From assembly GCF_003704095.1 (NCBI RefSeq), contig NW_020843834.1:992001-1056000 (forward strand): a stretch of 64,000 nt of DNA, in the 5' to 3' direction. The position numbers were made by a program, and so were the translations under genes. This document shows, piece after piece, positions 4,233 through 7,200 of the stretch. The stretch's first letter is position 1. Each line of letters begins with the position of its first letter. The DNA comes from Pocillopora damicornis (lineage: Eukaryota). Under the pieces are notes generated by a model. That model ran no database searches. It saw only the letters and a program-made list of their open reading frames with translations, and was not told the DNA's origin.

Positions 4233-7200
4233 ATGAACAGCAATGCAAAAAGTCTGATTTCTAATGACAAAACTGTATTATTACATTTGTCCACCATGTG
4301 TAGGGTTCTGGAAACAACCAGCAATGCTGCAAGCTCTGTTCATTCTAAAAAGAGCAAAAATAAGCACCTGGCAGAAGCTGAGAAACAGAAGGCCGAAGCC
4401 GAAGTGAAGGCTGCAAAAGAGAGGGAACAGGTACCTCAGTAGTTTGTTGTGTTTACCTCCCATAGATGACCAGGACATAATTTCTCCTTACATTATCAAT
4501 AGAATACCAAGTAAACAAGTAATGAGAATAAAGGAAAATATCAATTAGGTGATTATTAGTTGATCCAATACCAAATTCTTCAAACTCACGTCATAAGAAT
4601 TGTATGGCTGACAGTAAGGAGAATTACTAATGAGATCTATGGAGTGAAAGGCTAACAAGCTAATCATTCAGAGAGAGGTAATCTGTGAGAAGATATTGTG
4701 TGACTATTTTGCGTGATAAGTGTTGTGTTACGCAGATGCTTTGGCTTGCATTGTGTGACAAGCACTGACAGAGGTAATCTGTGAGAGATGTTGTGTGATT
4801 ATTTTGCGTGATAAGTGTTGTGTTACGCAGATGCTTTGACTTGCATTGTGTGACAAGCACTGACAAGCATTTGCTCTGACGAAGGATTAACGCTCGAATT
4901 AAGGGGGTGAGTTTCTAAAGAAATTGTGGTGCTGCGTCAGTGGGAGAGTATAACAGGGTAATTTACTATTATCAACTGAGCTGATAACGTGAATTGGCCA
5001 CCGTAAAGAGTTTGCAAAGCTGACGTTTCGAGCGTTAGCCCTTCGTCAGAGCGAAAGTCAGGAGGGCTAACGCTCGAAACGTCAGCTATGAAACTCTTTA
5101 CGTTGGCCAATTTACGTTATCAGCTTGGTTGATATTTCTAAATAACCCTGTAACGCTCGAATATTCAGCTTTAGAACTCTTTACGGTAGCCAATCTACAT
5201 TTTCAACTCAGTAGATAAAACCAAATTACTATTGTAGACAGCCAGTGTGTTATGAAATAACTGTGTTGTAACAGCGTGACGTTCAACATACGCTAGATGG
5301 TTTAATAACAGAAATAACCGGGCATGGTCGTCTGGAACTCGAAGTTTCTGATAATCCCCTCCCCATCCATAAGGCCTGCATTTGGAAGCCCGGGGGGGTG
5401 GGGGGAAATGGGGCTTGCGAGAGCGTTTATGGTGTTACCCGTGAGTAGTTTGTGACGTTTTCTTATTTTTACAGCAATCTGTCCGCTTATATGAAGTGTG
5501 GTCGAAGATCAAACAAGAGGAGAAAGATGAACAATACCAATACCTGAAGGAAAGAGTCGCCATACAACATGAACTCATCAAAAGACAAGACTCGCTCTTT
5601 AAGAAACGTCAAGCTCACCTGGAACAGAAACGGTGGCAGGTGAGATGTTACAGCTTAAATTTTGCAGAAGAGTTAAGGAGTATTGCCGAAAGGTAACTTG
5701 AACGGCCGGCGAGCAGGACCTTACCCAGTAAGCACTTCGGCACGACCACCACGGTTTCAGCGCCTTCAGGAAAGTATGAGGCCTCTTAGCAGCGCCAGTC
5801 GGTGAGAGGTCTGTAAGGGGTCTGGCACTAATAATTATTTTTGCATGAGCCCCGGTAAAGCTCTCGCCGAAAAGCTTGTGAGAGTCCAGACTACGCCTGA
5901 ACCAGCAAATTCTGAATCGGAATGTTTTAGTACGTAGCTACAAGTACGGAGTGCATCACTTCTTTTGAGAAATTTTTTTGATGGAGGAAAACTTCCATCA
6001 AAGTTAATTCTTGAAATGAATCCTAGTTACTCTTGTTCCCAGGGTCTCTCTCTTTCTGACCAGAAACTGCGAATAAGTTTGTCTAAACGTTAACAGTAAA
6101 TTTCGATTTTACGGTTTCCTCGAGATGTAAGTTGGGACTTTTGGCCGAAGTTTTTCGACCATATTTCGATAGACTGTTATTGAAAGTGGTATGTAATAAG
6201 TATAATAGTGTTTCAAAACATTAGCGAAATGCGTGAGGGGAAGTTGCTGGATTCTTTATCGTAAAAGATGGAAGCTTCGATAGTGCTCTCTTTTGTTAAT
6301 AGAACCCTCTGGAAGCAGAAGAGATTTCGAGAAAAACCACTGACTTGAACCTCACCCGGGCGATCAAACACTTGTCTAGGTTTAATGTTTCCCCCAACAG
6401 TTCTTCCATACAGTAGAACAGAGCACAGTCGTGAAACAGTCGAATTGGGCTTCCTTTTCGAAATAAAATTTTGAAAACATGTCGCTATTGTCATGGGCAC
6501 TGAAAGAGATGATCGTGTTAATGTGAGGGTTGCATTGCGAATTTCATGGTATGATGTCTCAATTGTATCATGAATAATTTACCTATCAATCTAATATTTG
6601 CATTTTAACTTTTGGATACGAAATTGCCCCACAAGATGGTATGCACAAAAAAATATAATTATCATACGAATTGACGCTGTTTTGACTGAGAAAGTTTTTG
6701 TTCTTTATGTCTTCTCTTTTTATAATGCGTAACACGGTTCTGTTAGCTCACTCTGCGCCTTAATGAGATGCAAGTTTCATGGTAACACTTTGTTGTTTAA
6801 AGTGTTGGTTCTCATGAATATATAACCATATTTTGTTCAATGTACAAGTCGTAATGCCTTGAAACTCTGTAATTTTTAGCTGAAAGAAGCAAAACGCTTG
6901 TCAAAGATGGCCAAGTCGAAAGAATACACCGATTTCGTTCGAAATGTTTTAGGTAAGTGAGAAATTTTTTGAAATTTGTTTTTCGTTTTTTTGGGTTGAA
7001 ATACTTTTCACATTTTCGACAGCGTTTAGTGGATTTAAACTTGCATTTTCTTCAGAAATGAAAGACAAAACCTTTCCTCTAATTTTCGCTTAATTTTCCT
7101 TCCAATCCGTTAAAAGCTTTTGTAGAAAACTGCCTTATTGCACAAGCAGTTGAGAGGCATATAGAAAAAGTTCTTATCCTGCCGTGTGCCGTACGTGTAA

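Follow-up and report, generated by a model that had tools for sequence, protein, structure and literature searches.

The question raised by this stretch is what the short non-coding unit is that recurs in its introns with a minimal hammerhead ribozyme inside, and by what route it came to be scattered there. The preliminary description of the window (by which we mean the whole 64-kb stretch analysed) listed four loci sharing one such unit, and took them for an independent, possibly circRNA-forming parasite of the retrozyme type. By blastn all four were found to be homologous, at 4870-5229, 23563-23815, 26793-26955 and 39773-39950, with 77-89% identity to the first, and a fifth, faint piece from the middle part of the ~160-nt unit was detected on the minus strand at 62333-62374 (79%, E 0.003). 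The homology thus held, but two of the four loci, the first and the second, are head-to-head palindromes and not single units, and the first is a nested double insertion. As judged from the flanking exons, all four loci are intronic, as had been proposed. The second and third lie between dynamin-family exons, and the fourth, antisense, between exons of an ING-family gene. The host of the first is a plus-strand gene, in which the locus occupies a likely phase-0 intron read from the sequence at 4431-5474; here the intact motif is antisense to its host. This plus-strand gene, which stands head to head with the MANF/ARMET gene (minus strand, starting near 2250), has charged coiled-coil exons at 4304-4430 and 5475-5640 and gave no Pfam match. 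An intronic copy of a minimal hammerhead is not necessarily a functional ribozyme.

The motif itself was read exactly as proposed, on the minus strand at 5052-5019. When the unit is numbered with C3 of the core as 0, the predicted cut falls after +27, between 5022 and 5021. The motif consists of a 3-bp stem I, the core, a bulged A, a 4-bp stem II with one G-U pair, and the palindrome ACGU in place of helix III. These are the features by which the min-HHR class is defined in PMC4209133, namely the core CUGANGA, one unpaired nucleotide, G10.1-C11.1, GAAA, a palindromic 15-16 segment and an NUH site, and the assignment to the helix-III-less hammerheads of Penelope-like elements was upheld, with 476 occurrences of the exact 34-mer in the 234-Mb genome and none of its reversed control. 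A looser minimal-hammerhead pattern gave 1,421 genomic matches against 0 for the control, and in the window the pattern CTGANGAN-N8-30-GAAACGT was found at 2 places, 0.05 being expected (0 of 100 shuffles reached 2). The position of the motif had to be reversed: it had been placed at the end of the unit, but in the RNA sense it opens the unit and about 120 nt then follow. Rfam scanning of the window detected no hammerhead family at E values up to 1; its mir-3160 and miRNA-hairpin matches were rejected as chance matches on the palindrome. By folding prediction, stem I of the monomer forms with a probability of 0.02-0.04 against a competing hairpin, the 34-mer folds as a plain hairpin, the halves of its core being complementary to each other, and two copies of the motif would pair via their stem II loops rather than via ACGU.

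Two insertions are nested at 4870-5229. An older plus-strand copy was split within its own stem II by a younger insertion, which occupies 4900-5150. The 5' piece of the older copy (4870-4899, plus strand; unit about -7 to +22) consists of 29 nt with 90% identity to the unit, and the stem II inside which the younger insertion cuts was already mutated. The younger insertion is bounded by a 12-bp target-site duplication, of which the left copy at 4888-4899 is identical to the right one at 5151-5162. Its tail-bearing arm (4900-5055, minus strand) comprises the pLTR from -6 onwards together with the whole ~55-nt tail, and contains the intact minimal type I hammerhead at 5019-5052. The inverted tailless arm (5063-5150, plus strand) extends from about +7 to the tail boundary and is without the 5' half of the catalytic core. 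The right duplication and the 3' piece of the older copy then follow at 5151-5229 on the plus strand, to about +90 and with no tail. On either strand the younger palindrome is predicted to form a ~90-bp hairpin (z -17.6), in which the probability is 0 for all seven hammerhead pairs. Directly to the left of the nested locus, a tandem duplication of 96 bp (95% identical) was noted at 4671-4865.

A fully intact motif was found only at this first of the four loci. The second locus (23563-23815) is another palindromic insertion, of the young subfamily. Its tailless arm (23563-23662, minus strand) has an intact core at 23629-23655 and has lost the G10.1-C11.1 pair, its tailed arm lies at 23664-23815 on the plus strand, and its target duplication is imperfect, about 13 bp with an exact 8-bp core. 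The cores of the other two loci, both on the minus strand, are decayed: the third (26793-26955) is a single copy, about 81% identical to the young reference, with core G8 lost, and the fourth (39773-39950) has a brief stretch of inverted remnant where its 5' end lies.

What recurs in the window is one end of a longer element: the pLTR and tail that make up the ~160-nt unit form the terminal repeat of a Penelope-like element encoding reverse transcriptase (RT) and a GIY-YIG endonuclease. Among the 30 best genomic matches to the unit, two (L005 and L026) share upstream sequence, and that of L026 encodes a GIY-YIG C-terminus. Conversely, 30 loci were found via the endonuclease end, and the unit stood directly downstream in 28, after a gap in one, and was absent in one; an autonomous partner with the same terminus, as had been anticipated, does exist. 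Besides RT motifs, the frames of these 30 loci contain a linker of the form CX4CXXC and a GIY-YIG domain that has cysteines inside it. In Pfam, RVT_1 scored above the cut-off and GIY-YIG just below. The order of RT and then C-terminal GIY-YIG, with two cysteines between GIY and YIG, was read from broken natural copies, and no unbroken full ORF was seen among the natural copies inspected. The insertions have the features of endonuclease (EN)-positive Penelope-like elements (PLEs), that is, a hammerhead in the pLTR, an inverted truncated arm, a tail on one side and a target duplication. The linker agrees with the CX2-5CXXC between RT and endonuclease that defines Neptune and is shared with Nematis (PMC8557442). 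We use the name Neptune provisionally, after the entry with the same ribozyme in Table S1 of PMC4209133.

The element's 5' end was walked with 101, 21 and 7 candidates, with 114 tail ends inspected for a shared continuation, and with two contig overlays. Over the roughly 2.75 kb covered upstream of the hammerhead no direct 5' pLTR was found, none of these walks recovered a full-length copy that has its own 5' pLTR, and no common flank follows the 114 tail ends except in two near-duplicate pairs. The most 5'-extended copies (L211, L214, L215 and L217) start within a few bases of one point close to the beginning of the ORF. L215 and L217 likely go back to a single duplication, and the common point is possibly a splice or processing boundary. 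Contigs assembled from RNA runs cover the ORF start of the element. The RNA data comprised 23 runs in the form of contigs, from which strand, ends and circles are not readable; the element was present in runs labelled coral, in agreement with a cnidarian host.

In a tree of 140 arms, short and ORF-bearing copies were interleaved, with weak supports and a bootstrap that had not settled. Young short arms were identical to long ones, and several label changes occurred at zero distance, although the short or long label changed 26 times against 37 for shuffled labels and is more clustered than chance. The older subfamily consists nearly entirely of short copies (42 of 44 rows), partly owing to how copies were picked.

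To describe the copies as a population, we sampled 120 fixed positions on 11 large contigs with a 10-kb stretch at each, 1,187,621 bases in all. The sample contained 48 loci. This corresponds to about 40 per Mb and, for the whole genome, to some 9,500, a rough figure as one half of the sample held 31 loci and the other 17. Thirty of the loci are single, 15 head-to-head and 3 of other form. Two complete hammerheads on the same strand were found in none of the 48 sampled loci (1.19 Mb; rare arrays may occur elsewhere), and thus no unit-length circle can be cut there. Only one of the 62 sampled arms is a long copy, fewer than suggested by the first-look candidates (2927 for the unit vs 808 for the endonuclease end, which are not copy numbers), a mismatch that counts against the reading given below.

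The 3' ends form two groups, at about +90 to +98 and at +145 to +152, separated by the tail of ~55 nt. The young palindromes combine a tailed with a tailless arm in 26 of 31 cases and two tailed arms in none. Target duplications were detected in 23 of these 31 palindromes but in only 2 of 220 mismatched flank pairs, most of the loci having been picked by likeness to the unit; their length is 8-16 bp, mostly 12-16, with a mode of 13-14. Single units carry a duplication in only 4 of 14 cases. At the 5' side, 31 of the 62 fixed-sample arms reach +3, and 30 of these 31 stop by -19, against the 11% that the earlier rate of loss predicts (p 4e-28). Exact end points are concentrated between -6 and -8, in many cases at a CA that precedes (A/T)TCGC, and single units have the same boundary as the palindrome arms. 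A splice acceptor was ruled out as the cause of this boundary, there being no AG at -8 in long copies, and an extra G such as a cap would leave was absent from the boundary. Nor was there a fossil of cleavage: among 118 young arms a single one begins at the cut site (+28), with no pile-up. Several single cases may be recorded here. A few palindromes are longer (L065 and L089). Within the junction of one palindrome (L077:1234-1650), the hammerhead's 5' half is re-copied in short tandem pieces, which suggests repeated template jumps at the boundary. The target duplication of L085, near 1350-1600, consists of unit sequence, and this is probably a second insertion into another copy.

From these data it is highly probable that the unit represents the pLTR and tail of a Penelope-like element, with the hammerhead included, and that the window copies are likely dead-end short insertions made by its own enzyme. 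The sharp 5' boundary likely marks the start of the RNA of the element, as far as can be told from where genomic copies end. How such stubs might arise can be outlined as follows. The enzyme would cut both DNA strands about 13 bp apart, and cDNA would be primed from each cut end, at two start sites bounding the tail (about +95 and +150). The template would be an mRNA that begins in the upstream pLTR. As these start sites would then be the ones nearest the mRNA 5' end, the cDNAs would reach the end of the RNA after 100-160 nt and stop there, 6-8 nt upstream of the core. Two run-off cDNAs joined to each other would give a palindrome, and one joined to the target would give a single unit. Transcripts of PLEs are reported to start in the upstream pLTR (PMC6765202), and an anole PLE cuts and extends both strands in vitro, with RT starting at two tail-bounding sites and ribozyme cleavage not needed (PMC11167929). 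If the 3,033-bp spacing between the hammerheads of the Acropora digitifera Neptune element (PMC4209133) also applies here, the tail and the most 5' coding sequence found are no more than about 130 nt apart, as would fit a unit at the head of the mRNA. In its full form, the proposal is that thousands of stubs record Penelope integration by a dimeric enzyme, with both strands primed, each tail-bounding site used once, and an uncleaved mRNA starting at an initiator-like CA 7 nt upstream of the hammerhead. We advance this tentatively and give it a little less than an even chance. If true, it would account in one scheme for the tail, for the inversion of the pLTR and for the great abundance of solitary minimal hammerheads across animal genomes.

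The 5' boundary could instead be a stall or snap-back point, at which the cDNA folds back after copying the self-complementary hammerhead and primes itself. Self-priming is the published reading of PLE palindromes in PMC3846280, and it would agree with the complementary core halves, with the plain hairpin predicted for the 34-mer, and with the 2-nt microhomology and 7-nt loop observed at many junctions. The distribution of the boundary between arms argues otherwise. In the 26 tail plus no-tail palindromes, counted by eye, the boundary was kept on the tailed arm in 13, on the tailless arm in 9 and on both in 4. A single folding cDNA cannot give the 9 with the boundary on the tailless arm only, and this split is better fitted by two cDNAs than by one folding back. 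In L071, L074 and L082 the two arms each stop between -6 and -9 and have 3-6 other letters lying between them, and the same boundary is common to single units. We consider folding back unlikely, at perhaps one chance in a few.

Propagation of the unit on its own account would be a different source of short copies. Here the ~160-nt unit would be a non-autonomous, SINE-like mini-PLE: short copies, once inserted, would be transcribed from a start of their own (-7), and the partner enzyme would move them in trans. The fixed 5' boundary, the high number of loci (about 40 per Mb) and the predominance of short copies in the older subfamily are in its favour, and pLTR sequences alone were sufficient for integration in trans in Adineta (PMC3846280). 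Against it, short copies go along with the ORF-bearing ones in both subfamilies and, in the young subfamily, do not differ from them, the 114 tail ends share no flank continuation apart from the two near-duplicate pairs, and a palindromic source would be transcribed as a hairpin. Such propagation is in our judgement improbable. The weakest reading, and the one closest to what was originally put forward, is that of a non-LTR retrozyme, in which the hammerhead cuts tandem units into monomers that circularise and are reverse transcribed: the intact motif in 476 places, the expressed retrozyme circles of corals (PMC7229834) and the derivation of retrozymes from pLTRs proposed in 10.64898/2026.07.22.740005 speak for it, but it is very improbable, as the tandems with complete motifs that the latter source requires are absent from the 48 sampled loci, the copies are not circular permutations and hardly ever start at the cut site, short and long copies are interleaved, the motif is predicted to be sequestered in palindromes and decays about neutrally, and PMC7229834 assigns minimal motifs to PLEs.

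In the master element selection maintains the ribozyme, which would cut there only as a dimer or with the help of protein. In the scattered copies it is a decaying passenger, predicted in palindromes to be locked in the hairpin. Better conservation of the core than of its flanks in young copies had been proposed as a test. Within the family it was barely seen: in 22 fixed-sample arms, A/T letters were kept at 148 of 154 core vs 522 of 570 flank positions (p 0.06), and the p values for G/C and CpG were 0.67 and 0.66; in 26 long copies, 4 of the 30 being left out, A/T gave p 0.03 and the other classes were not significant. Core and stems were kept together in 7 of the 22 arms and in 17 of the 26 long copies. 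Inserted copies decay about neutrally, and within the family the core is not clearly better kept than the flanks, as would be expected of dead copies. Between subfamilies, the 34-nt motif is the same in both majority lines, whereas about 10 of the next 75 positions differ (by eye).

Covariation of the stems followed the same division, with only decay within the family and compensatory changes across nine chosen representatives of about four families. In stem I, pair 1 is U-A or C-G, pair 2 C-G or G-C, and pair 3 G-C, A-U or C-G; in stem II a fixed G-C is followed by G-U or A-U and then by G-C or C-G. Stem I is broken in two of the nine representatives, and a stem II pair is broken in two. The constancy of the motif between subfamilies and the fold kept elsewhere with changed stems altogether show that selection acts on the ribozyme of master elements. 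At least three more families with a minimal hammerhead were noted in the genome, among L218-L232, loci chosen because their motif is intact. Their 5' ends also often lie 3-36 nt upstream of the core, less sharply, and L224, L227 and L231 follow remnants of GIY-YIG or RT that lack the linker zinc finger and are in this respect Poseidon-like.

Repeats of other kinds are present in the window. Related families of ~200 bp are represented by about 15 copies, at least some with terminal inverted repeats starting TTAACCCTTT; they include 29556-29766, 35827-36030, 36027-36229, 38644-38852, 42062-42266, 57003-57191, 59863-60081, 4452-4651, 3350-3556 and 41673-41878, and others. In appearance they resemble piggyBac-type MITEs. 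Heads resembling tRNA, each followed by repeat sequence, were found at 48337-48409, 19525-19601 and 36409-36481 (Rfam tRNA 42, 28 and 26 bits), and these are likely tRNA-derived SINEs. An imperfect palindrome of ~165 bp at 18603-18767, with a small central hairpin, is MITE-like.

As for novelty, the ribozyme, the class of its host element and the inverted arrangement are already known. The preliminary description left it undecided whether the family was catalogued; it is, as Cervera and De la Peña (2014; PMC4209133, Fig. S3 and Table S1) print the identical ribozyme for a Neptune element of A. digitifera (BACK01051917). The agreement is letter for letter in stem I, core, stem II, loop and palindrome, the GAAA column being printed apart, the upstream flank is similar, and the motif there lies in the pLTR of an RT plus GIY-YIG element. 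The same paper notes that the majority of these motifs occur singly, in truncated form or as pairs lying on opposite strands, and gives weak dimer cleavage for a schistosome example. What differs is that the present copies are from another coral genome, in which no full element with two hammerheads was recovered, and that the fixed 5' boundary and the pairing of tail with no tail are not described in the main text of PMC4209133. A literature search by titles and abstract openings, with subscription papers mostly outside its coverage, gave no description of this boundary. As a discovery the finding is minor; its value is that of a natural data set for PLE integration. Roughly 9,500 sharp-ended loci lead to exact predictions, namely that the RNA starts at -7, that the start sites lie at about +95 and +150, and that the stagger is 13 bp, and these end statistics are the only part worth a bench test.

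The insertion unit described for EN-positive PLEs (PMC3846280; PMC8557442 Fig. 2) has the same head-to-head arms, tail on one end, target duplication and insertion into another copy. The tail is about 55 nt here vs 30-40 there, the duplication mostly 12-16 bp vs 8-10, and most insertions here hold no ORF. The Poseidon element PAc of Anolis carolinensis, as described in PMC11167929, likewise has a hammerhead upstream of two tail-bounding RT start sites, with both strands cut and extended, and the lack of RNA reads at its cut site is matched here by the lack of a pile-up of copy ends. PAc belongs to another clade, without the linker zinc finger, and its reactions were observed in vitro, whereas ours are deduced from genomic ends. 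The non-LTR retrozymes of corals (PMC7229834) are also short and non-coding, with a type I hammerhead and a stony coral host. Theirs are canonical hammerheads in head-to-tail tandems of 220-240 bp with proven circles; here, in place of a canonical hammerhead with loop 1-loop 2 contact, there is a minimal motif with a 3-bp stem I and no helix III, tandems are absent from the 48 sampled loci, and an ORF-bearing parent exists.
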